From: a virus
Taxonomy: Duplodnaviria; Heunggongvirae; Uroviricota; Caudoviricetes
IMG/VR virus record: IMGVR_UViG_2744054854_000008
Location: 1-11,839 of that record
DNA length: 11,839 nucleotides
Reading direction: 5' to 3' (one strand)
Part shown: positions 1 to 11,839 of the stretch, one piece after another
How the letters are laid out: every line of letters starts with the position of its first letter
How positions within the stretch are numbered: position 1 is the first letter of the stretch
Notes under the pieces: model-generated
Seen by the model: only the letters and a program-made list of their open reading frames with translations
Databases searched by the model: none
What the model was told of the DNA's origin: nothing
Program-made: the position numbers and the translations under genes

Positions 1-585
1 CTATTCGATAATGGGTACTGTTGGCCATTCAATATCCGGTGCAGTTGTTGTATTAACACGGTTCAGCAACACCCGATATTTTTTCCAGGCTTCCAGCAAT
101 GAGGTTTCTTCCTCCGTTGCGATCTCCAGATCTACAGCATCCTGAAGTGGCGCTATATGCTCACTGGCTACCTGCATCAGGCTGTTTTTTGTTTCTTCCG
201 CCTCCCGGATCCGGAACAGTTTTTCTGCTTCCGTATCCTTCACCCAGGCTGTGCCGTTCCACTTCTGATATTCCCCTTCCGGCGATAACCAGGTGACATT
301 TTCCGGTAATGAGCCGAGTTCAGAAATAAATAACGCGTCGCCGGAAGCCACGTCATAAACCGTTTTACCCCGATGATCTTCAACGAGATGCCACGATGAC
401 TCATCACTGTTGAAAACAGCCACGAAGCCAGCTGGAATATCTGGCGGTGCAATGTCGGTACTGTTTGCTGGCAGACCTGTATGAGGCGGAATATATGCGT
501 CACCTTCACCAATAAATTCATTAGTTCCGGCCAGCAGATTATAAATTTTTATGGTCCGTGGTTGTTCACTCATTCTGAATGCCAT
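1..585 (-). CDS. tfa: Tail fiber assembly protein (lambda Tfa-like chaperone), 194 aa, complete
   Basis: Full ORF with ATG at 583-585 and stop at 1-3. Translation ([24 protein letters not shown]...EWPTVPIIE) is collinear with lambda Tfa as I recall it. Its start overlaps the stf stop (TAATG on the minus strand), the classic stf-tfa coupling. Confidence 0.9.
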
Positions 586-3500
586 TATGCAAGCCTCACA
601 ATATAGTTAAATGCGATGTTTTTGACGGTGTTTTCCGCGTTACCAGCAGCGTTAACGGTGATGGTGTGTCCATGTGAGCCAATCGCAACCGAGTGCGTAT
701 GAGCACCAATACCGACAGTATGTGCGTGTGCACCTGCGCTTGCAGCAGTACCCGATACAGAGTGCGTATGAGCGCCTGCAGAAGAAGTGTTAACACTGTA
801 TTTAGAATAATCAGGTGATCCACTTCCCGGAGCACCACTGGAACCACCTGAAACAAATGTCATCGAATGGGTATGTGCACCGGCTGAAGCAGCCGTACCG
901 CTAACACTATGGGTATGCGCACCAGTGTTATTCGTGGATTTAGTGCCGTAATCAAACGACGATGTGGTTTTCGTCCCCAAATCAGTACTGGATGCGCTGG
1001 CGCTGTGGGTATGCGATTTTATGCCGTCCTGTTCCTGAGACAATACGGCACGACCACTGGCGGGCTTGCCCTTAATCGTCCAGCCACGCATATCAGGGAT
1101 CACGCCTGACGGATAAGCGGCTGCAAGTTTCGGGTAGGCAGATTTGTCAAAAGTCTGCCCCTGCATCAGGGCATAACCAGACGGAACGGTATCTGATGGC
1201 CACGGGATTGGTGCGCCGACTGGGTAGCTTTCTGGTGGAAGATTTTTCGAGGTATAAACTTCTGCCCAGTCTTCCTCAAAACCATAACCGTCTCTTGAAG
1301 AACGGTAGAACAGACCACCATTTCTGTAATGCGCCTTCATCTGCAGGGTCCGGCAACTTCCGACTCCGGTATAGAAGTTAACCAGAATATAGCTGTCGCC
1401 AGAGCGGGTGACATTATAAGCGCCTGATTCGGCATTCCAGGGAACGCCACCATCCGCATCGGCATATGTATCCGTTGCCCTTCTGGCAAAAGCAGCCACA
1501 TGCGCGGCGGTTAAAGTGATATCAGTAGAACCATCAAATGGAACACCGGATATTTTTCTTGCAGTCTGGAGTTTTGTAGCAGTTGCAGCATTACCAGTAG
1601 TGTTCTGATTACCCGTAGTGTTTACACCTGGAAGGTTAATATTTGCAGAACCGTCGAAAACAACTCCACCGATAGATCTTGCCGTCTGCAATTTCGTGGC
1701 TGTACTTGCATTACCATTCAATGAACCAGTTAATCCACCTGTAACAGACAACGGACCTGAAACTGTTCCTCCGGTTGTTGGCAGTGCTCCAATATCTGAT
1801 GGTGTAGGTTTCTGATGTGAGCTATACATCGTATAAACAACACCATAGGTAACGCTGGAAGGCTTACTCGCTGAATATGTTGGCGAGGTATAAACAGAAA
1901 CTGACGCATTTGCAGTACAATCCCAATGGATATTTACACTCGTCGCATAATTGCCAATCTCAACGTAAATATCATATGTATCGCCGGATGTGTTGATCCA
2001 GGCGAAATTCGTTAATCCGACGGCTGTACGCTTCCACAAAGCCCCGGTAATTCCTTTGGGGTTTCCATTGCCTGCTCGTAGAACCAGTTCTGAAATGCCT
2101 GCCTGATGTGGGGAACCGACGTTGTAACCAGCGCCACCAATCAATGCGATGTAAACGATGGAACTCGTTTGTGGCATGGTAACCGTAGCCAGTTTGAACC
2201 ACCCAGCCCCGCCAGAGAAAGACATCGTTACTGAATTTAAAGTACCAATATCTTTCGGCGTTAATGTTATATCCGCAGTCAGTGCTTTTCCGTTAACTTT
2301 TCGGTTAGATGGCACCCTGCTATTCGCATTGTCATTGGCTGCTTTAACTGCTTTTGGCGTTGCGGCCAGCGATTCACTGGTGCTATCAACAGCACTGCTA
2401 AGTTTCACAACACCTTTAGTTGTAAGGCTTGCGTCTTCCATCGCAACTGCACCGGCAATCTCTTCAGCACGATCAGCAGCAGCTTCCGCACGGGTCGCAG
2501 CGGATTCAGCAGTAGTTTTGCTCTGAGATGCCGCCGTCGCACTGCCAGCAGCCTCTGTTGCCTTCGTGGATGCCGTCGTGGCGCTGCCCTTCGCTGCTGA
2601 CGCTTGTCTGGTCGCCTCATCTTTTGAAGCAGACGCCGATGAGGCCGATGACGCCGCCGAACTGGCGGACGATGCGGCAGCCGTTTTTGAGGATTCTGCG
2701 CTGGTTTCCGACGCTTTCGCGTTCGTTTCGGATGTCTTCGCTGCGGAAGCTGACCTCGCTGCTGCGCTGGCCTGTTCAGTGGCTTCGCCAGCCTTCGTTG
2801 TGGCTGTTGAAGCGGACGATGCGGCGCTTTCTGCCGATTTTCCGGCGGCGCTAGCACTGGCTGAGGCCTGCCCGGCACTTGTTGACGCTGCACTGGCAGA
2901 CGACGCAGCCGCTGTTTTTGAGCCTGCCGCAGCCGAGGCGCTCTGTCCCGCTGCCGTTTCAGAAGACCTGGCGTTTGTCTCGGACGTCTTTGCCGCCTTC
3001 GCGGAATTGCCTGCTGCCGTTGCCGAGGAAGCGGCACTACTGGCGCTTGATGATGCGTTCGTTTCTGATGATTTCGCTGCCTCTTTTGAGGCCGCCGCAT
3101 CCCGGGCTGAGGTGGCTGCTTCTGACGCCTTCGTGGTCGCGGCGGATGCAGAAGTGGCTGCTGATTGTTGTGACGCTGCCGCATTCGTTTCTGACGTTTT
3201 CGCCGTAGCGGCACTGGTAGCTGCCGCGCTTTTTGAGGACTCTGCAGCAGCAGCACTTTTCGATGCTTCACTGGCCTTTGTTGATGCCGTTCCTGCGCTG
3301 GAAGATGCTGACTGAGCCGACGACGCGGCCTGTCCGGCTGACGTGCTGGCTGCGCGTGCTGAGCCTGCAGCATCAGTCGCATGGGTTGCCGCCTCACGGG
3401 CTGATGTGCTGGCATCGCTGGCTGACTTCTTCGCGGCTGCCGTGTTCTGTGCCACCGCGGACGCGTTACGCGCCACCTCTTCCACCATCAGTTCAAAACG

Positions 3501-3812
3501 GCGCAGTGCCTCAGGACGGGCATCATCCTCCGTCATGGCACCGAGAAAATCATTCAGCGTACCGGGTCGGGAATCTTCATACACGGTGATGGTCCCGGCA
3601 TGTGACGGCGGGAATCCCTCCACCAACAGAATAACGCTGTACTGCCCGTACTCAACGTCCATGCTGTAACGCCCGGCTTCATCCGGATTTTCTGAGGCCA
3701 GCGTGTTCACCACCACCGTGGTGCTGTTACGTTTTGCTTTCAGCTGGATTGTGCAGTTCTGTACCGGTTTTCCTGTGCCGTCTTTCAGTACACCTGAAAT
3801 CTTTACTGCCAT
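585..3812 (-). CDS. stf: Side tail fiber protein (lambda Stf-like), about 1075 aa
   Basis: N-terminus [26 protein letters not shown] and C-terminus ...GAHTHSV...[15 protein letters not shown] match lambda-type Stf. Long Ala/Ser/Thr-rich central region and C-terminal GAHTH (HxH) repeats. Likely start is the ATG at 3810-3812 with GGGGTG upstream; the ORF track's start at 3818 is an upstream in-frame GTG. Stop TAA at 585-587. Confidence 0.9.
2400..3480 (-). repeat. GC-rich low-complexity repeat region inside stf, encoding reiterated Ala/Ser/Thr-rich motifs ([26 protein letters not shown])
   Basis: The translation shows many imperfect repeats of short A/S/T motifs. The DNA is dominated by GCN/TCN/ACN codons, which is why long spurious ORFs open in other frames and on the opposite strand here. 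Confidence 0.5.
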
Positions 3813-3823
3813 ATTCACCCCAC

Positions 3824-3850
3824 AAAAAAGCCCGCCTGAACCGGCGGGCT
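3824..3850 (-). terminator. Rho-independent terminator downstream of lom
   Basis: Plus-strand gcccgcc(3830-3836)/ggcgggc(3843-3849) inverted repeat with a 6-nt loop, preceded on plus by A6 (3824-3829). On the minus strand this is a GC stem followed by a T6 run, 27 nt after the lom stop. Confidence 0.6.
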
Positions 3851-3876
3851 GTCATAACACTGTGTTACCTGGCTAA

Positions 3877-4476
3877 TCAGAATTTATAACCGACACCCAC
3901 GATGAAACCGTCAGTGCGCCAGTCACCACTGCCGGAGCCTTCATAAGCAATATCAATGGCCACGGATTCGGTCGGGTTAAACTGCACGCCAGCCCCCCAC
4001 GCCAGAGACGTGTTGCTGTGGCGACCGTCATCACTTCCGGTCAGCACATCGTGCTTTTTCCCCTTGTTGTCAGTTACGCGAAGATAATCCCCGGAGAAAG
4101 TCGACACACGGCTGTAAGCCACACCCGCCATCGCATACGCGCTGAACCATTCATTCACGCGCACAGACGGCCCCGCCATTACGCTGAACCAGCGGTTACG
4201 CACGGAATCTTCATGCCAGCGGGTATCGCTGTAACGGGTAAGCTGGCGATTCTTGTCTCCTGCATAGCTGAATGACGTCACCATTCCCAGCGTGTCCGTA
4301 AACTCATAACGGTATTTCACGTTAATCCCGTTCAGATCATCGCTGCCGGAAACGTTCGTCGAGGCATGAAGATAGCCCGCGCTCAGCGTGGACTGATGTT
4401 CAGACGCCCATGCAGGCGCACCGGATACGGCCAGACAGATGGCTGCGGACAAAATGGCGGCATAAAGTTTACGCAT
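3877..4476 (-). CDS. lom: Outer membrane beta-barrel protein Lom (Ail/Lom/PagC family), 199 aa, intact
   Basis: ATG at 4474-4476 with GAGAGG Shine-Dalgarno upstream. Signal peptide [24 protein letters not shown], alternating amphipathic beta-strand pattern, C-terminal aromatic residue (…GVGYKF). Sits between J and stf as in lambda. Confidence 0.9.
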
Positions 4477-4497
4477 AATTACCTCTCGCTTTTCTGC

Positions 4498-4524
4498 AAT
4501 AAAAAAGGCGTCATTTCTGACGCC
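4498..4524 (-). terminator. Rho-independent terminator downstream of the J fragment
   Basis: ggcgtca(4507-4513)/tgacgcc(4518-4524) 7-bp stem with tttc loop. On the minus strand the hairpin is followed by TTTTTTATT (plus 4498-4506 aataaaaaa). Confidence 0.6.
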
Positions 4525-4542
4525 CGTTCTGGGTTATAAAAT

Positions 4543-5910
<1,368 letters not shown>

Positions 5911-5920
5911 TTATGCCCTC

Positions 5921-5944
5921 CATTAAAAATGGGGCCGAAGCCCC
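5921..5944 (-). terminator. Rho-independent terminator downstream of the 461-aa gene
   Basis: Minus strand reads GGGGC-TTCG-GCCCC (plus 5931-5944) followed by ATTTTTAAT (plus 5921-5929), starting 10 nt after the TAA stop at 5955-5957. Confidence 0.55.
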
Positions 5945-5954
5945 GTTTGAATGT

Positions 5955-7340
5955 TTAACCAAGAATCAGACAACCATGTGCCGGCTTCACTGATGAAACA
6001 CCCCATGCCAGTCCAACTTCATAGCGCACCTGGCGATACTGACGATACAGTGCAATCTGGAACGTAATCCCTGAAATCGGGTCCGTAACATTCATTACAT
6101 CATCAGCATTATCGCCACCTTCCGGCATTGCCGGAGTACGGGATGCCAGCAGAAACGCGTTGCGATCAAACGCCATATTTGCCGTAAAGGCCCCAACAAC
6201 TGTGATGGCAGTATCATCGGCCAGATCCTGACGCAGTCCGGGCGCTGCAAGAGTAATCAGATTGCTGGTCGCTGCTGCCACAACATACTGATTCGGATCA
6301 CCAGCGAACGTAACAATCTGACCTGCAGAAATACTCCCCGAACCAGTATCAATGGAAATAAGAACATCGCCTTCTTTTTTCTCTCCATTCACGAGATAAC
6401 CAGTTGCAGCAACCTTTGGCGCTCGTTTCACACCTGCCGAACTGTGAATATTGAATCCCTCCAGACGCCCCAACACGCCCTCACGCAGTAGCTGTTCAGT
6501 GCCGGATTCATTCACTTTAAACAATACAGACTGTTTTCCGCGCAAATTAGCAATGGCAGTGGAGCCAAGCACCATCTGCAGATCGGTTGTCGGTGCGCCG
6601 TTATCCTCCAGAACCTGACGAGCCAGAGCAGCATCAGAAAGATCATCTTTAACACCAAACGGCGTTGTCCCTGCGGTTCCCACGGCGCGGGAAGCACCGA
6701 AATACAACGCACCAAGATCAGCCTCAACCTCGTTTGCAAGGGCGCGAAAAGCCTGCTTGAACTGATCAGCCAGAATGGTGTTGTAAGTCCCTGAAGGGCC
6801 AAGAGCCAGTTGTTCTTCACCATTCCATTTAACCGGTGCCATTTTGGATTTAGTAATTTTTACATCAACAGTGCCAATATTTTGATCACCGGTAAACATG
6901 CTGTTAATAGCAGTGCGGTTACCGGGCAAAACATCCGTCAACAGTTCATCAATTTCTGTCGGGATGAAGCCTGTCAGGGAGACATCAAAATCAGCATTGA
7001 TTAGGTCCGACAGCTCCATCCGCAACAGATCTTCATCCCAGCCAGCATTCATCGGCAGGCGATTATCTGCCAGGCGGTACGCCTTTTTCTGCTCATCCGT
7101 CAGGCCAGACAGAACAATGACCGGAACAGAATCCATTTTGAGCATTTCAGCCGCCATAACACGACCGTGACCCGCAATAATTTCGCCCTTTTCGTCAATC
7201 AGCACCGGATTAGTCCAGCCGAATTGCTTAATACTTTCTACCAGTTGTGCCACCTGCTCAGGGCTGTGCGTCCTGGCGTTGTGCGCATACGGTGACAATT
7301 CTTGTAATGGGCGATAGACTATCTTTAATTTCTCGCTCAT
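5955..7340 (-). CDS. ParB-like nuclease (ParB/Srx fold) N-terminal domain protein with an unassigned ~320-aa C-terminal region, 461 aa
   Basis: ATG at 7338-7340 with AAGG upstream. Residues ~8-95 (IVYRPLQELSPYAHNARTH...IIAGHGRVMAA...VPVIVLSGLTDEQKKAYRLADNRL) carry the ParB N-terminal domain pattern, with GHGR in place of the canonical GERR. The Gly/Ala/Thr/Val-rich C-terminal part has no motif I can assign. Followed by a terminator. Confidence 0.75.
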   Translation of the reverse strand: MSEKLKIVYRPLQELSPYAHNARTHSPEQVAQLVESIKQFGWTNPVLIDEKGEIIAGHGRVMAAEMLKMDSVPVIVLSGLTDEQKKAYRLADNRLPMNAGWDEDLLRMELSDLINADFDVSLTGFIPTEIDELLTDVLPGNRTAINSMFTGDQNIGTVDVKITKSKMAPVKWNGEEQLALGPSGTYNTILADQFKQAFRALANEVEADLGALYFGASRAVGTAGTTPFGVKDDLSDAALARQVLEDNGAPTTDLQMVLGSTAIANLRGKQSVLFKVNESGTEQLLREGVLGRLEGFNIHSSAGVKRAPKVAATGYLVNGEKKEGDVLISIDTGSGSISAGQIVTFAGDPNQYVVAAATSNLITLAAPGLRQDLADDTAITVVGAFTANMAFDRNAFLLASRTPAMPEGGDNADDVMNVTDPISGITFQIALYRQYRQVRYEVGLAWGVSSVKPAHGCLILG

Positions 7341-7477
7341 ACAGCCTTGCTTTATGAATAAAACGCCCCCCAGCAGCCAGTGCTACTGGGGACGGAGGGG
7401 TTGCTGGTAAAGTTAGGTATTGGATCAATGAGTGAGTCAACATAATATTAAACTCACAATTATAAATCAGCCATATA

Positions 7478-8935
7478 TTAGGAGCGCCAAAAAAAACCTG
7501 AAAACAATATAATAACAGGATAAATTTCAAGGCGACCAAGAATCATAGCTATGCACATTAAACATTTTGCAATGTCATTAAGCACTCCGAATGACGATGC
7601 AGTAGCCCCAAAACCTAATCCCATATTATTAATACATGCAGCCACTGTTGCAAATGATGTAAGAAAATCATATCCCATACCATTTAATACCAGTATAAAA
7701 AACACCGTGAAGAGAGTATAAAGAAAAAAGAAACTCCATACAGACCTCATTACACGATCTGTAACTATCTTCCCTCCTACATTTACACTCAACAACGCTC
7801 TGGGATGAGAAAGCTGATTTATCTCGTGTTTGCTTTGTTTGAAAAGTATAAGAAATCGAAGTGACTTAATTCCACCACAAGTTGAACCTATACATCCCCC
7901 AAAGAAACTTGACAACAGCAAAAACACTATCGTGTGCGTGGGCCAACTTGCATAATCCTGCGTAGCTAAACCATTATCAGTGAGCATGGAACTGGCAAGA
8001 AAAAACGAATGAATAAAACTTCCATGCAAGTCATACATACCTATATGCCAGACCTGGAAAGAGGTAACAATGATCACCCCTAAGGCTATTAACAGAAAGA
8101 AACGAAGTTCAATATCTCTGATTAAAGGTTTTATCGTTTTCCTGCTAATAACAATATACCAAAGAGTGAAGTTGAAAGCCGATAGCAGGGAAAAAGAACC
8201 AGCCACCAGCTCAACCAAATAGTTATTAAAATATCCGATACTCTCGCTATGAGTTGAGAAACCACCAAGCGAAACTGTGGAAATCCCGTGACAAATAGCA
8301 TCAAACAAAGGCATTCCTGCAAGTCTATAACAGACAATACAAGCAATACCTAATAAAGAATAAGTTATCCACAGTGTCCGTGACGTATCGGCCAGGCGGG
8401 GAGTGAGTTTGTCATCCTTAAATGGCCCCGGCATTTCTGACTGATAAAGCTTTGCACCACCAATACCCAATAATGGCAATACAGCAACCGCCAGAACAAT
8501 AACTCCTAAACCACCTATAAAATTTAACTGTGACCGATAGTACAAATATGCCCGAGGTAATGAACTAACATCATCAATTACAGTTGCTCCTGTTGTTGTT
8601 ATTCCAGAAACCCCTTCAAACAGAGCATCAATGAACGTTAAATTAAGTTCTGAGTCAATCCATAAAGGGAATGCACTAATAACAGAAAACAAAATCCAAA
8701 ACATTACAATTATAATAAACCCATCACGGGTACGTAATTGAATGCCAGATTTCTTAGTTGTATACCACGCTCCGCCACCAATGCAAAAAAATATAACGAA
8801 AGTTATAAAGAAAACGAACAGGCTTTTTTCTTTATAAAACAATGCTACAACCATTGGTGGCAACATTGAAAGACTATAGAGCCAAACCAGGAACCCACAC
8901 ATATGAGTAACAACTCTTACATGAGATGTATTCAT
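7478..8935 (-). CDS. trkG: TrkH/TrkG-family K+ uptake transporter (Rac-prophage TrkG-like), about 485 aa
   Basis: Multi-pass membrane protein. N-terminus MNTSHVRVVTHMCGFLVWLYSLSMLPP is as I recall TrkG, and the reiterated pore-loop GG(L/F)G-type motifs fit the TrkH family. Coding DNA is visibly AT-rich compared with its flanks. Start taken as the ATG at 8933-8935; an in-frame TTG at 8951-8953 with AGGTGG 6 nt upstream is an alternative (491 aa). Confidence 0.9.
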   Translation of the reverse strand: MNTSHVRVVTHMCGFLVWLYSLSMLPPMVVALFYKEKSLFVFFITFVIFFCIGGGAWYTTKKSGIQLRTRDGFIIIVMFWILFSVISAFPLWIDSELNLTFIDALFEGVSGITTTGATVIDDVSSLPRAYLYYRSQLNFIGGLGVIVLAVAVLPLLGIGGAKLYQSEMPGPFKDDKLTPRLADTSRTLWITYSLLGIACIVCYRLAGMPLFDAICHGISTVSLGGFSTHSESIGYFNNYLVELVAGSFSLLSAFNFTLWYIVISRKTIKPLIRDIELRFFLLIALGVIIVTSFQVWHIGMYDLHGSFIHSFFLASSMLTDNGLATQDYASWPTHTIVFLLLSSFFGGCIGSTCGGIKSLRFLILFKQSKHEINQLSHPRALLSVNVGGKIVTDRVMRSVWSFFFLYTLFTVFFILVLNGMGYDFLTSFATVAACINNMGLGFGATASSFGVLNDIAKCLMCIAMILGRLEIYPVIILFSGFFWRS

Positions 8936-8939
8936 ATCT

Positions 8940-9010
8940 AAATATTCTTTCAATTATAACCACCTTGCTGCAATATTATGATTATACTGTATAAAATTTA
9001 ACTCCTCTTA
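8940..9010 (-). promoter_or_regulatory. Candidate trkG promoter in an AT-rich intergenic region
   Basis: Two minus-strand TATAAT hexamers (plus attata at 8953-8958 and 8981-8986) in a 137-bp AT-rich spacer between the Rz stop and trkG. Neither has a good -35 element, so this is weakly supported. Confidence 0.2.
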
Positions 9011-9072
9011 GATCTTACTTCACTGTTCCTTATGAAACAATCATCAAAATGAATCATATTGTAGTTAAGATT

Positions 9073-9363
9073 TTACTTTAAACACTGCTCGGTTATGTAT
9101 TGCTGAGCACCTTCAAGTTGGGCCTGCATCATTACCAGTCGTTCCCGGAGGGTGAAATAATCCCGTTCAGCGGTGTCTGCCAGTCGGGGGGAGGCTGCAT
9201 TATCCACGCCGGAGGCGGTGGTGGCTTCACGCACTGACTGACAGACTGCTTTGATGTGCAACCGACGACGACCAGCGGCAACATCATCACGCAGAACATC
9301 ATTTTCAGCTTTCGCATCAGCTAACTCCTTCGTGTATTTTGCATCGAGCGCAGCAACATCACG
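9073..9363 (-). pseudogene. rzpR: N-terminally truncated Rz (i-spanin) remnant, C-terminal ~97 codons
   Basis: Hand translation gives RDVAALDAKYTKELADAKAENDVLRDDVAAGRRRLHIKAVCQSVREATTASGVDNAASPRLADTAERDYFTLRERL..., collinear with the lambda Rz C-terminal two thirds. Similarity stops abruptly upstream of codon R at 9361-9363; the signal-anchor N-terminus and a start codon are missing. Confidence 0.7.
9132..9317 (-). CDS. rzoR: Rz1-type o-spanin outer membrane lipoprotein, 61 aa, embedded in the +1 frame of the Rz remnant
   Basis: ATG at 9315-9317. MRKLKMMFCVMMLPLVVVGCTSKQ... has a lipobox (VVGC), and the Pro-rich mature part (KPPPPPAWIMQPPPDWQ) matches lambda Rz1 nearly residue for residue. 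Confidence 0.8.
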   Translation of the reverse strand: MRKLKMMFCVMMLPLVVVGCTSKQSVSQCVKPPPPPAWIMQPPPDWQTPLNGIISPSGNDW

Positions 9364-9422
9364 CGGACTTGTGCAAGTTGCCAGGAGGATCTGGAGCTTA
9401 TCAGTAAACAGAGAGGTTCGAA

Positions 9423-9830
9423 GTGAGCGAAATTAACTCTCAGGCACTGCGTGAAGCGGCAGAGAAAGCCGGTGAAGATAAGTGGCAGGCTAAAAAAATA
9501 AATGGTGATTTTTTCGTTATTCGTCACGGTAGTTATACAAGACAGCATGGCTACACATCGTATCAACCCATTGCGGAGATTGATTGTAAGCCAGTCCGGG
9601 ATTTTGTTGCCAAGGCTAATCCGGCTACCGTGCTGGAATTACTGGATGAACTGGAAGCAGCAAAAAAGCGCATTGCAGAACTGGAAGCGCGGGAAATACT
9701 GCTCCCGGAACGTAGCAGCATGCTTCATCGAACAGATTTTCACGATGATTACCAAACGGTAATGGCATACAAAGTTTCTGAAGTCATCGATGCAATCCGC
9801 GCTACTGGCATTCGCATCAAAGGAGAGTGA
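9423..9830 (+). CDS. Phage Ead/Ea22-like family protein (function unknown), 135 aa
   Basis: GTG start at 9423 with GAGAGG upstream; stop TGA at 9828-9830. Motifs QALREAAEKA and ANPATVLELLDELEAAKKRIAELE are what I associate with Ead/Ea22-like proteins of lambdoid prophages. The family assignment is from memory. Confidence 0.55.
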   Translation: MSEINSQALREAAEKAGEDKWQAKKINGDFFVIRHGSYTRQHGYTSYQPIAEIDCKPVRDFVAKANPATVLELLDELEAAKKRIAELEAREILLPERSSMLHRTDFHDDYQTVMAYKVSEVIDAIRATGIRIKGE

Positions 9831-9831
9831 G

Positions 9832-10587
9832 ATGATTCACTACCACGGTGGGCCTATTACTCCTGATACGTGCGCAATGAGAGCATGGAAAGGGCGACAT
9901 GCGTTTATCAGTTTTGCGCATTCAGGCCAGATCAATCTCGCGGCTGAATACTGTCAGTCGTTCGCGCTGGACAACGGTGCATTCACCGCCTGGAAAGCAG
10001 CTGGCAAAAACAAAATCGACTGGAGCGATTACTACGAGTTTGTTGCTCGCTGGAAGAATCACCCAGGATTCGATTTTGCCATTATCCCGGATATTATTGA
10101 TGGCGGAGAGGAGGAAAATGATGCGCTTCTGAATGAGTGGCCTCACGGAAAACTAGCTGGCGTTCCAGTGTGGCACATGAATGAAAGTGACGCGCGATTT
10201 ATTCATTTGTGCAATGAGTTTCCGCGAGTGGCTATCGGTAGTTGTGGCGACTATGACGTAAAGCGCCCAACTCTTGCGGTAGCCAGAATGAAAGACCTGA
10301 TTCGTCACATTGTTGATGGGCATGGTCAGCCGGTTACGAAACTACATGGATTGCGCATGTTAAATCCGCTGATATTCACAAAATTACCCTTAGCCAGCGC
10401 AGATAGTACGAACGTCGCTCGAAACATCGGTATTGATAAAGCCTGGTCTGGGGCTTATGCACCTGCAAGTAAAGAGACACGCGCAGCATTAATGGTAGAA
10501 CGGATTGAGGCACACAATAGCCCTGGTTCTCTTGCGTATTGTGAACAACGCGACCGCTTTGAAATGCAATTGCAACTAGCAGTTTAA
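9832..10587 (+). CDS. Hypothetical protein with TGT-like (tRNA-guanine transglycosylase fold) motifs; candidate DpdA-type 7-deazaguanine transglycosylase, 251 aa
   Basis: ATG at 9832 with AGGAG 6 nt upstream, 1 nt after the upstream stop; the track's start at 9790 is an upstream in-frame ATG. Motifs in TGT order: FALDNGAF (cf. TGT LTDSGGFQ), GFDFAIIPDI (cf. GSDIVMIFDE), HLCNEFPRVAIGSCG (cf. HVCPQIPADKPRYLMGVG), ADSTNVARN (cf. FDCVMPTRNARN, nucleophile Asp). No CxCxxC...H zinc motif. The gene call is solid; the functional call is a hypothesis. Confidence 0.6.
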   Translation: MIHYHGGPITPDTCAMRAWKGRHAFISFAHSGQINLAAEYCQSFALDNGAFTAWKAAGKNKIDWSDYYEFVARWKNHPGFDFAIIPDIIDGGEEENDALLNEWPHGKLAGVPVWHMNESDARFIHLCNEFPRVAIGSCGDYDVKRPTLAVARMKDLIRHIVDGHGQPVTKLHGLRMLNPLIFTKLPLASADSTNVARNIGIDKAWSGAYAPASKETRAALMVERIEAHNSPGSLAYCEQRDRFEMQLQLAV

Positions 10588-10597
10588 GGACTAACAA

Positions 10598-11839
10598 ATG
10601 ACCACTATTACCAAAGAACGTATTGAATTGTTCATTAAAAATCCGCTTGAAAACGGGCTTACTCGTGGCGAACAAATGGAACTGGCACGAATTGCACTGG
10701 CATCACTGGAACGCGAACTGATTCGCCACGAGCATGCCAAATGGTCTGACTCCACATTTGGCTGCGTTGGCCCCATTGGTCCACTGAAACACCTCTCAAA
10801 AGAGGCTCTGGAAGCCGCAGCCGAACCAGACGATCTCAGCGAGTGGGCTGATATGCATTTCCTGTTGTGGGATGCACAGCGCCGTGCTGGCATCAGCGAT
10901 GCTGAAATTACCGCTGCTATGGAAGATAAATTGAAGATCAACATGGAGCGCCAGTGGCCTGAACCAAAAGATGGTGAGCCTCGCTTGCACATTAAAGAAC
11001 CCGGCAACTCTCCGGTAATTCCGGATGGTTTATCCACGGTATGCGCTGAGGCTTATCAGGTTGTAGGAGTTATGGCAGATGCGCTTGGTGTATTCGGTGA
11101 TGCAGCAGTACAGAAAGTTCTGGATAACCTGTCACAGCAAAAACTTGTTCACAGAGATGTGCTGCCGTTCTCGCTTCCGGTGACTCCGGATGGTTGGATA
11201 AGCTGTAGTGAGCGAATGCCGAAAGAGGCAATAGCTGAAGGCCATATAACAACAAACCCTGTCGCTGCCACTCGCGCAGCAAAATCAGAGGTAAGGAGAT
11301 CAAGACTTACGGCTGACGAATACCTGAAAATTTATCAAGCAGCAGAATCATCACCATGTTGGCTCAGACTTGCAATGGAACTGGCTGTTGTTACCGGGCA
11401 GCGAGTTGGTGATTTATGCGAAATGAAGTGGTCTGATATCGTAGATGGATATCTTTATGTCGAGCAAAGCAAAACAGGCGTAAAAATTGCCATCCCAACA
11501 ACATTGCATGTTGATGCTCTCGGGATATCAATGAAGGAAACACTTGATAAATGCAAAAAGATTCTTGGCGGAGAAACCATAATTGCATCTACTCGTCGTG
11601 AACCGCTTTCATCCGGCACAGTATCAAGGTATTTTATGCGCGCACGAAAAGCATCAGGTCTCTCCTTCGAAGGGGATCCGCCAACCTTTCACGAGTTGCG
11701 CAGTTTGTCTGCAAGACTCTATGAGAAGCAGATAAGCGATAAATTTGCTCAACATCTTCTCGGGCATAAGTCGGACACCATGGCATCACAGTATCGTGAT
11801 GACAGAGGCAGGGAGTGGGACAAAATTGAAATCAAATAA
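10598..11839 (+). CDS. Chimeric tyrosine recombinase: non-integrase N-terminal ~209 aa fused in frame to a lambda-type Int catalytic domain (~203 aa), 413 aa
   Basis: ATG at 10598 with TAAGGA 7 nt upstream; stop TAA at 11837-11839. From residue ~210 (EAIAEGHITTN...TGQRVGDL...FHELRSLSARLY...HLLGHKSDTMASQYRDDRGREWDKIEIK) it is near-identical to the lambda Int C-terminal catalytic domain, including the R...HxxR...H...Y residues. Residues 1-209 do not resemble the Int arm-binding or core-binding domains. Confidence 0.8.
   Translation: MTTITKERIELFIKNPLENGLTRGEQMELARIALASLERELIRHEHAKWSDSTFGCVGPIGPLKHLSKEALEAAAEPDDLSEWADMHFLLWDAQRRAGISDAEITAAMEDKLKINMERQWPEPKDGEPRLHIKEPGNSPVIPDGLSTVCAEAYQVVGVMADALGVFGDAAVQKVLDNLSQQKLVHRDVLPFSLPVTPDGWISCSERMPKEAIAEGHITTNPVAATRAAKSEVRRSRLTADEYLKIYQAAESSPCWLRLAMELAVVTGQRVGDLCEMKWSDIVDGYLYVEQSKTGVKIAIPTTLHVDALGISMKETLDKCKKILGGETIIASTRREPLSSGTVSRYFMRARKASGLSFEGDPPTFHELRSLSARLYEKQISDKFAQHLLGHKSDTMASQYRDDRGREWDKIEIK

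Follow-up and report, generated by a model that had tools for sequence, protein, structure and literature searches.

Phage DpdA proteins form a family of DNA 7-deazaguanine transglycosylases. In phage CAjan the deoxynucleoside of 7-cyano-7-deazaguanine (preQ0), dPreQ0, accounts for 32% of G and its dependence on DpdA was shown by deletion of dpdA, and the DpdA of phage 9g alone puts dPreQ0 into plasmid DNA in E. coli from a host precursor (PMC6884629). A third group in the same survey comprises 76 phages that carry DpdA only, for which reliance on host preQ0 or on imported precursors was proposed (PMC6884629). Here we describe a gene whose 251-residue product we confidently assign to the phage DpdA family; it closely resembles the proteins of this third group. 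The gene lies in an 11,839-nt stretch of DNA (IMG/VR record IMGVR_UViG_2744054854_000008, positions 1 to 11,839; hereafter the window) that is a badly decayed lambda-type prophage of E. coli, and RefSeq labels the product of the same reading frame ‘hypothetical protein’.

The family is an already known one, with near-identical members listed since 2019; the gene represents an annotation gap and not a discovery. The best phage matches by tblastn are to a Stx1a-converting phage (98.4% identity) and then to Salmonella lambdoid phages at 92.4%, SPN3UB among them. The SPN3UB product, YP_007011024, is entered as a DpdA in Supplementary Data 1 of the 2019 survey by Hutinet et al., without listed preQ0 genes, and Enterobacteria phages SfI and HK106, Salmonella virus BTP1, SEN1, PEAT2 and phage 7-11 are likewise listed as DpdA-only (PMC6884629). 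The 98.4% copy belongs to Stx1a-converting phage Stx1a_EH2115 (LC744180.1, 3227–3979), so that this putative DNA-modification gene may be present in Shiga-toxin phages. Phage DpdAs escape every model of Pfam, NCBIfam and PADLOC, and neither CAjan DpdA nor the DpdAs of QueC/QueD/QueE clusters receive a Pfam match; the PGAP label ‘hypothetical protein’ results from this lack of a model.

Relationship to phage DpdA proteins

Sequence comparison places the protein among the phage DpdAs. It matches PHROG 887, ‘queuine tRNA-ribosyltransferase’, over residues 1–248 (E 2.6e-101), and the same group also takes in CAjan DpdA (E 8e-96), the phage 7-11 homologue and a homologue from a T1-like phage. By BLASTP the protein is 25% identical to CAjan DpdA over 153 residues (E 7e-9). 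When a family profile made from 56 diverse members, CAjan excluded, was aligned to a CAjan-family profile with hhalign, the probability was 99.0% (E 4e-18) over 173 columns and the columns of the catalytic motifs were aligned, pairing D47 with CAjan D63, H115 with H132, G136 with G153, H172 with H187 and D191 with D206. The phage 7-11 homologue is 35% identical (E 8e-32). Arthrobacter phage Sonali gp87, which sits inside a cluster of ParB-like, QueC, QueD and QueE genes, shares 30% identity with the protein (E 3e-15).

The predicted structure points in the same direction. An AlphaFold2 model made from 41 homologues (mean predicted local distance difference test score, pLDDT, 79; predicted TM-score, pTM, 0.81) has eight predicted β-strands alternating with helices. 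A Foldseek search of predicted viral structures returned 27 matches at E ≤ 1e-3, and all of the named ones are phage ‘queuine tRNA-ribosyltransferase’. As modeled, the fold is a (β/α)8 barrel whose structurally nearest proteins are those of the tRNA-guanine transglycosylase (TGT) family.

Canonical TGT itself was not reached by sequence searches. A Pfam scan of 57 family members gave no TGT match (PF01702) at E ≤ 10, phmmer and two family-profile hmmsearches against all PDB sequences found nothing relevant, and hhalign produced no alignment either with E. coli Tgt or with a nine-sequence bacterial TGT profile assembled from TGT genes in phage-collection records. We ascribe these failures to shallow profiles rather than to absent homology, because the validated CAjan DpdA fails the same tests. 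The link between the 251-residue protein and canonical TGT rests on structure and on intermediate phage DpdAs.

Gene neighborhoods of homologues tie the subfamily to 7-deazaguanine precursors and to DNA modification. Relatives at 39–42% identity are found directly beside YhhQ/VUT/DUF165 genes in three unrelated phages, the T1-like coliphage Phleasolo, Pectobacterium phage PEAT2 and Rhizobium phage RHph_N3_2, and YhhQ is a preQ0 transporter family (PMC6884629). In Caulobacter phage DMCA the homologue is directly downstream of a QueD-like gene, while a Shewanella copy (66% identity) resides in a P2-like prophage after the replication gene, with one variant beside a C5 DNA methyltransferase. Neither the window nor the intact prophage described below contains genes for preQ0 synthesis or transport (FolE, QueD, QueE, QueC, YhhQ); such an association is not required for the published DpdA-only group (PMC6884629). 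The DpdA-like identity had been proposed in a sequence-only reading of the window, made without database searches, and is upheld by the PHROG shared with CAjan DpdA, the profile alignment, the Sonali match, the viral predicted structures and these neighborhoods. Of the profile matches to be expected under that proposal, the one to DpdA was obtained and the one to canonical TGT was not.

Two features of these neighborhoods are recorded in their own right. In the three phages with a YhhQ/VUT/DUF165 gene the pair is adjacent or overlapping and no synthesis genes accompany it (locus coordinates 5522–6825 in the T1-like coliphage, 3531–4756 in PEAT2 and 5001–6205 in RHph_N3_2), and this two-gene salvage-and-insert module may merit a description of its own. 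A metagenomic protein of 421 residues (P0234) joins a truncated D12-class N6-adenine DNA methyltransferase domain (Dam; PF02086, residues 7–193) to a DpdA-like domain missing ~38 residues at its N-terminus. With both parts truncated, a deletion chimera of neighboring genes is more probable than a genuine fusion, and the protein is evidence of adjacency only. The fusion of a longer homologue to a baseplate protein was dismissed as uninformative.

Candidate active site and proposed reaction

We counted conservation over 57 diverse family members, the most distant of them ~33% identical, with CAjan DpdA (18%) in addition. D47, H172, D191 and S192 are invariant (57/57), and A50, D87, H115, G136 and L174 are each conserved in at least 90%. 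Four TGT-like motifs had been singled out in the sequence-only reading, and three of them are present and conserved: FALDNGAF (residues 44–51, with D47 in 57/57), GFDFAIIPDI (residues 79–88, with D87 in 55/57) and ADSTNVARN (residues 190–198, with D191 and S192 in 57/57). In DpdAs from preQ0 gene clusters, the segments aligned with these first, second and fourth motifs are LDSGAF, HxF/HGL and CDSS/TDSS. The third, H-x-C...G-x-G (H125, C127, G163, G165), is present in the protein but not conserved, since H125 recurs in 3, C127 in 15 and G163 in 4 of the 57. What is truly conserved between the second and fourth motifs is VWH115 (56/57), G136 (54/57) and H172-G-L. The lack of a zinc-binding subdomain, also part of that reading, is borne out: the CxCxxC...H motif is absent and no cysteine is conserved family-wide among the 57 members. 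The protein terminates 60 residues past D191.

The active site of bacterial DpdA comprises D95 (acid/base), F99, D130 and H181 (base recognition), G206-G207, L236 and D256 (nucleophile). Its three catalytic Asp residues are invariant, and alanine mutants of the acid/base and nucleophile Asp abolish guanine exchange. In the 251-residue protein D47, D87, H115, G136, H172-L174 and D191 each fall at or just after the C-terminal end of consecutive predicted strands (43–47, 80–84, ~110–114, 132–135, 170–173 and 189–192), and the spacing of these candidates resembles that of bacterial DpdA across the second half of the barrel. Because the strand-end positions and spacings resemble those of the bacterial enzyme, we infer that D47 serves as the acid/base, F51 as a gate residue, D87 and H115 in base recognition and D191 as the nucleophile. 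L174 would supply the hydrophobic stacking on the base, as the counterpart of bacterial DpdA L236 and TGT M260. The three Asp residues, D47, D87 and D191, follow the TGT order and align with the CAjan and Sonali motifs, and their strand-end positions suggest that they are equivalent to the catalytic Asp residues of TGT and bacterial DpdA.

These considerations lead us to think it probable, though well short of certain, that the protein is a stand-alone DpdA that makes 7-deazaguanine-modified DNA in E. coli. In the reaction we propose, on the pattern of bacterial DpdA and TGT, a minimal, zinc-less (β/α)8-barrel enzyme would act on double-stranded DNA. D191 would attack C1' of the target deoxyguanosine and displace guanine, leaving a covalent Asp191-deoxyribose intermediate between enzyme and DNA, with D47 as the general acid/base. 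A 7-deazaguanine base would then resolve the intermediate. The likeliest donors are preQ0 or its amide, 7-amido-7-deazaguanine (ADG), supplied by the host FolE-QueD-QueE-QueC pathway, and the product would be sparse dPreQ0 or dADG (the deoxynucleoside of ADG) in DNA. In intact relatives the gene is promoter-distal in the early-left (pL-type) operon, with ea22 on one side and xis-int on the other, and the protein would therefore be made after induction or infection. The modification might in this way mark replicating phage DNA and give it sparse protection against restriction in the next host.

The host side of this scheme is in place. The other steps of the host preQ0 pathway in E. coli are established knowledge (also PMC6884629), and queC is present in 5425 of 5426 complete E. 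coli genomes, which makes the use of host preQ0 feasible here. The idea that a stand-alone DpdA could draw on host-made preQ0 came up again in the sequence-only reading, and the same hypothesis was already in print (PMC6884629).

Several observations weigh against our reading. By hmmscan neither Pfam (at E ≤ 1) nor NCBIfam matches the protein, PADLOC gives no match, its DpdA model included, and Foldseek against the PDB finds only generic TIM barrels (tryptophan synthase alpha, TrpA; pyruvate kinase; aldolases). Together with the missing TGT profile match, such results would suit an unrelated TIM-barrel enzyme, aldolase- or TrpA-like, in which the TGT-like motifs are coincidental. We regard this as very improbable. 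The PDB matches reach TM-scores of only 0.45–0.55 at ~10% identity, the sequence matches to DpdAs of preQ0 gene clusters are significant, and validated phage DpdAs also miss the Pfam TGT model, so the negative is uninformative. The PADLOC result did lead us to drop a filing of the protein as a defense-system DpdA or Cap10. The assignment of one residue is ambiguous as well. D90 competes with D87 for the role of base-recognition Asp: D90 (30/57) aligns with an invariant Asp of CAjan, D105, and CAjan has Ser at the D87 position, whereas the Asp of Sonali aligns with D87. Finally, the copy in the window has lost its native promoter region, and in a consensus scan upstream promoter-like sites were no commoner than chance.

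In the literature we found no report of an assay on any lambdoid stand-alone DpdA. Stand-alone DpdAs cluster by host clade (gamma-Proteobacteria among them) and have possibly diverged in function; of the two phages with a stand-alone DpdA whose DNA was analyzed, Mycobacterium phage Orion is unmodified and phage 7-11, the nearest tested relative, contains dADG at 0.02% of G and not dPreQ0 (PMC6884629). The stand-alone clade might accordingly have lost or changed the exchange reaction, its members being inactive, acting only as glycosylases or DNA binders, or needing a partner that is absent, with no protective modification as the outcome. The requirement of bacterial DpdA for DpdB and ATP would fit, as would the inactivity of phiSM DpdA1, DpdA3 and DpdA4 in E. 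coli assays. We nevertheless hold such a loss to be unlikely. The Orion host makes no preQ0 (PMC6884629), which explains that negative, and E. coli has the pathway; the DpdAs of 9g, nt-1 and VH7D function alone in E. coli, and relatives of the protein are linked to preQ0-transporter genes. The presumed catalytic residues are all invariant (D87 nearly so) in the family down to ~33% identity. The ratio of nonsynonymous to synonymous substitution (dN/dS) against the SPN3UB allele is 0.02, with synonymous sites near saturation, and the family is therefore under strong purifying selection; the value says nothing on selection in the remnant, because the remnant copy is identical to the intact-prophage copy. 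The very low level in 7-11 could also be a side activity of a TGT-superfamily enzyme with a non-DNA substrate, which might exchange a base in a tRNA of the host or the phage, tRNA being the ancestral substrate of the superfamily, or handle a nucleobase-protein conjugate in the manner of Cap10, for example as an anti-defense factor. This seems to us rather improbable, since the sequence relatives of known context or function are DNA-modifying DpdAs, in other phages the gene has DNA methyltransferases and replication genes for neighbors, and no Cap9/QueC-like or CD-NTase partner is encoded in the window or the intact prophage. The Cap10 score is merely 0.1 Z unit above that of DpdA, and PADLOC gave no match here either.

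If the protein is the active DNA-modifying enzyme that we favor, temperate phages of E. coli, Salmonella and Shigella would in many cases bear a low-level 7-deazaguanine mark made wholly from host precursor, with bearing on restriction evasion, on modification-dependent defense systems and on the reading of nanopore base-modification signals. A bolder idea, which we offer as speculation and think improbable, is that the stand-alone DpdAs of temperate lambdoid and P2-like phages are sparse, motif-specific writers that use the host preQ0/ADG pool to place a rare mark on phage DNA and, in lysogens or remnants, perhaps on the bacterial chromosome too. If so, ~4% of E. coli strains would have a hitherto unmeasured DNA modification, with effects on restriction, on modification-dependent defenses (GrwAB-type) or on prophage-host recognition.

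The gene and the prophage remnant

The gene, as read from the window sequence, is an intact open reading frame (ORF) that ends in TAA (Table 1). An alternative in-frame ATG at 9790 would add 14 residues. We place the start at the ATG at 9832 because the family homologues are 248–252 residues long and likewise open with MIHYHGGP, and because AAGGAG precedes this ATG by 6 nt. One base separates the ATG from the TGA stop of the upstream Ea22-like gene (9828–9830), and the chimeric ORF downstream begins 10 nt past the stop. The location between an Ea22-like gene and an integrase chimera, as first described from the window alone, agrees with the domain matches on both sides.

Table 1. Positions in the window of the dpdA-like gene, its candidate active-site codons and adjoining features
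Feature	Position	Strand	Remarks
dpdA-like gene	9832..10587	+	251 aa; zinc-less minimal TIM barrel (predicted), phage DpdA (DNA 7-deazaguanine transglycosylase) family; WP_000582229.1
AAGGAG Shine-Dalgarno	9820..9825	+	Within the 3' end of the Ea22-like gene; read from sequence
D47 codon (LDNGAF)	9970..9972	+	Putative general acid/base, would equal D95 of bacterial DpdA and D102 of Z. mobilis TGT; predicted strand 43–47 ends here C-terminally; aligns with CAjan D63
D87 codon (IIPDIIDG)	10090..10092	+	Putative base-recognition Asp, would equal bacterial DpdA D130 and TGT D156; 55/57; a Sonali Asp aligns
H115 codon (PVWH)	10174..10176	+	56/57; aligns with CAjan H132; role suggested by spacing and strand-end position
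H172-G173-L174 codons (KLHGLR)	10345..10353	+	End of predicted strand 170–173; H172 57/57, L174 52/57; aligns with CAjan KLHAF
D191 codon (SADSTN)	10402..10404	+	Putative nucleophile, would equal bacterial DpdA D256 and TGT D280; aligns with CAjan D206 and Sonali TDSS
Ead/Ea22-like gene	9423..9830	+	Upstream neighbor, same operon; PF13935, E 2.6e-17; RefSeq-annotated
Chimeric ORF	10598..11839	+	Hypothetical N-terminus, dATP/dGTP pyrophosphohydrolase domain and integrase C-terminal catalytic half; PF04447 and PF00589; from comparison with the intact prophage
Left deletion junction	9364		Upstream early-left operon (kil, gam, bet, exo ... TraR/DksA) gone; a lysis-gene fragment on the opposite strand abuts

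The window has a 100% identical counterpart in E. coli strain 2018-10-1CC, where the prophage remnant is placed between bioA-ybhB and ybhC, an interval that we take to be the lambda attachment site. The order of its genes is tfaR, a tail-fiber gene, a lom-like gene, a tail-tip fragment, a P22-type capsid-family gene, a ynaK fragment and trkG, followed by a lysis-gene fragment that abuts a TraR/DksA fragment, ea22, the 251-codon gene, two gene fragments and an integrase fragment. E. coli strain KKa014 (NZ_CP147105) carries the intact left arm, consisting of the repressor region, kil, gam, bet, exo, small ORFs, TraR/DksA, ea22, an identical copy of the 251-codon gene, a dATP/dGTP pyrophosphohydrolase gene, two small ORFs, xis and int. 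Alignment of the two shows that 1,510 bp are deleted from the window, with the junction at 11224–11226 (a 3-bp overlap). With xis and the N-terminal part of the integrase removed by this deletion, the prophage is locked in place; what remains of the integrase, its C-terminal catalytic half, now continues in frame from the pyrophosphohydrolase gene (PF04447). On the other side, the sequence upstream of 9364 is wholly replaced relative to the KKa014 prophage, which leaves the gene without its early-left operon and promoter. With the upstream early operon deleted and the integrase truncated, expression in the remnant is doubtful, and the gene there is intact but probably a passenger. We also considered a functional link to the dATP/dGTP pyrophosphohydrolase gene downstream and rejected it, as this neighbor is not conserved and SPN3UB has an Eaa-like gene in its place.

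Of 5426 complete E. coli genomes, 204 carry the allele, 188 of them with at least 99% identity, and all of the matches listed are annotated ‘hypothetical protein’.

The late region of the remnant (window 1–9364) looks Rac-like, with a lysis-gene fragment, trkG, a ynaK fragment, a capsid-family gene, a tail-tip fragment, lom, an stfR-like tail fiber and tfaR. The trkG of the remnant thus occupies a chromosomal site other than that of Rac in K-12. On the minus strand, 5955–7340 is a single 461-residue ORF with a ParB/Srx-like N-terminus followed by P22-type major-capsid-family sequence, which RefSeq divides into a ynaK pseudogene fragment and a capsid-family coding sequence; it looks like another in-frame deletion chimera. 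The tail-fiber gene (585–3818, minus strand) encodes 1077 residues with a long central region of low complexity, rich in Ala, Ser and Thr. Long ORFs of up to 336 residues overlap it in other frames and on the opposite strand, and these are almost certainly by-products of biased composition.

Comparison with known transglycosylase systems

Canonical tRNA-guanine transglycosylases (bacterial Tgt, archaeal ArcTGT; PF01702) differ from the 251-residue protein in size and architecture: the protein is ~125 residues shorter, lacks the zinc subdomain and the N-terminal lid, and has no Pfam match. Its presumed substrate is DNA and not tRNA. Cap10 of the type IV cyclic-oligonucleotide-based antiphage signaling system (CBASS; PDB 9NTN) acts on a protein-nucleobase conjugate in concert with Cap9 and a CD-NTase; it shares 10% identity with the protein, which has no PADLOC match, and genes for Cap9 (QueC-like) or a CD-NTase are absent from both the window and the intact prophage.

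The DpdA of the bacterial Dpd restriction-modification system (S. Montevideo, PDB 7UI4), a protein of 413 residues, depends on the DpdB ATPase, contains a large insertion (Ins8) and has a structural zinc site that is conserved; nothing of the kind is present here. Identity in the structural alignment is 14%, and the PADLOC DpdA model does not match the protein. Genes for the DpdB ATPase, DpdC or the DpdD-K restriction proteins are found neither in the window nor in the intact prophage.

The DpdA1 proteins of Queuovirinae (CAjan and 9g), which were shown to insert preQ0, have in common with the protein the PHROG and the LDxGAF, xxH, IGG/IGS, KxHxx and xDSxx segments. CAjan DpdA differs in being only ~23–25% identical, in its length of 306 residues with a C-terminal extension, and in having no equivalent of D87, for which it uses the Asp aligned to D90. 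It is encoded together with FolE, QueD, QueE, QueC and a preQ0 transporter, and CAjan modifies ~30% of its G.

With the DpdA-only gamma-proteobacterial group (group 3 of Hutinet et al., 2019; PMC6884629) the protein shares its short zinc-less architecture, the setting in phages without preQ0 synthesis genes, hosts with the full queuosine pathway, and sequence identities of 92.4% to SPN3UB, 67% to SfI and 35% to 7-11. There is no substantive difference: the present copy is set apart only by its place at the lambda attachment site, in a prophage that has degenerated, with the upstream operon gone and the RefSeq name ‘hypothetical protein’.

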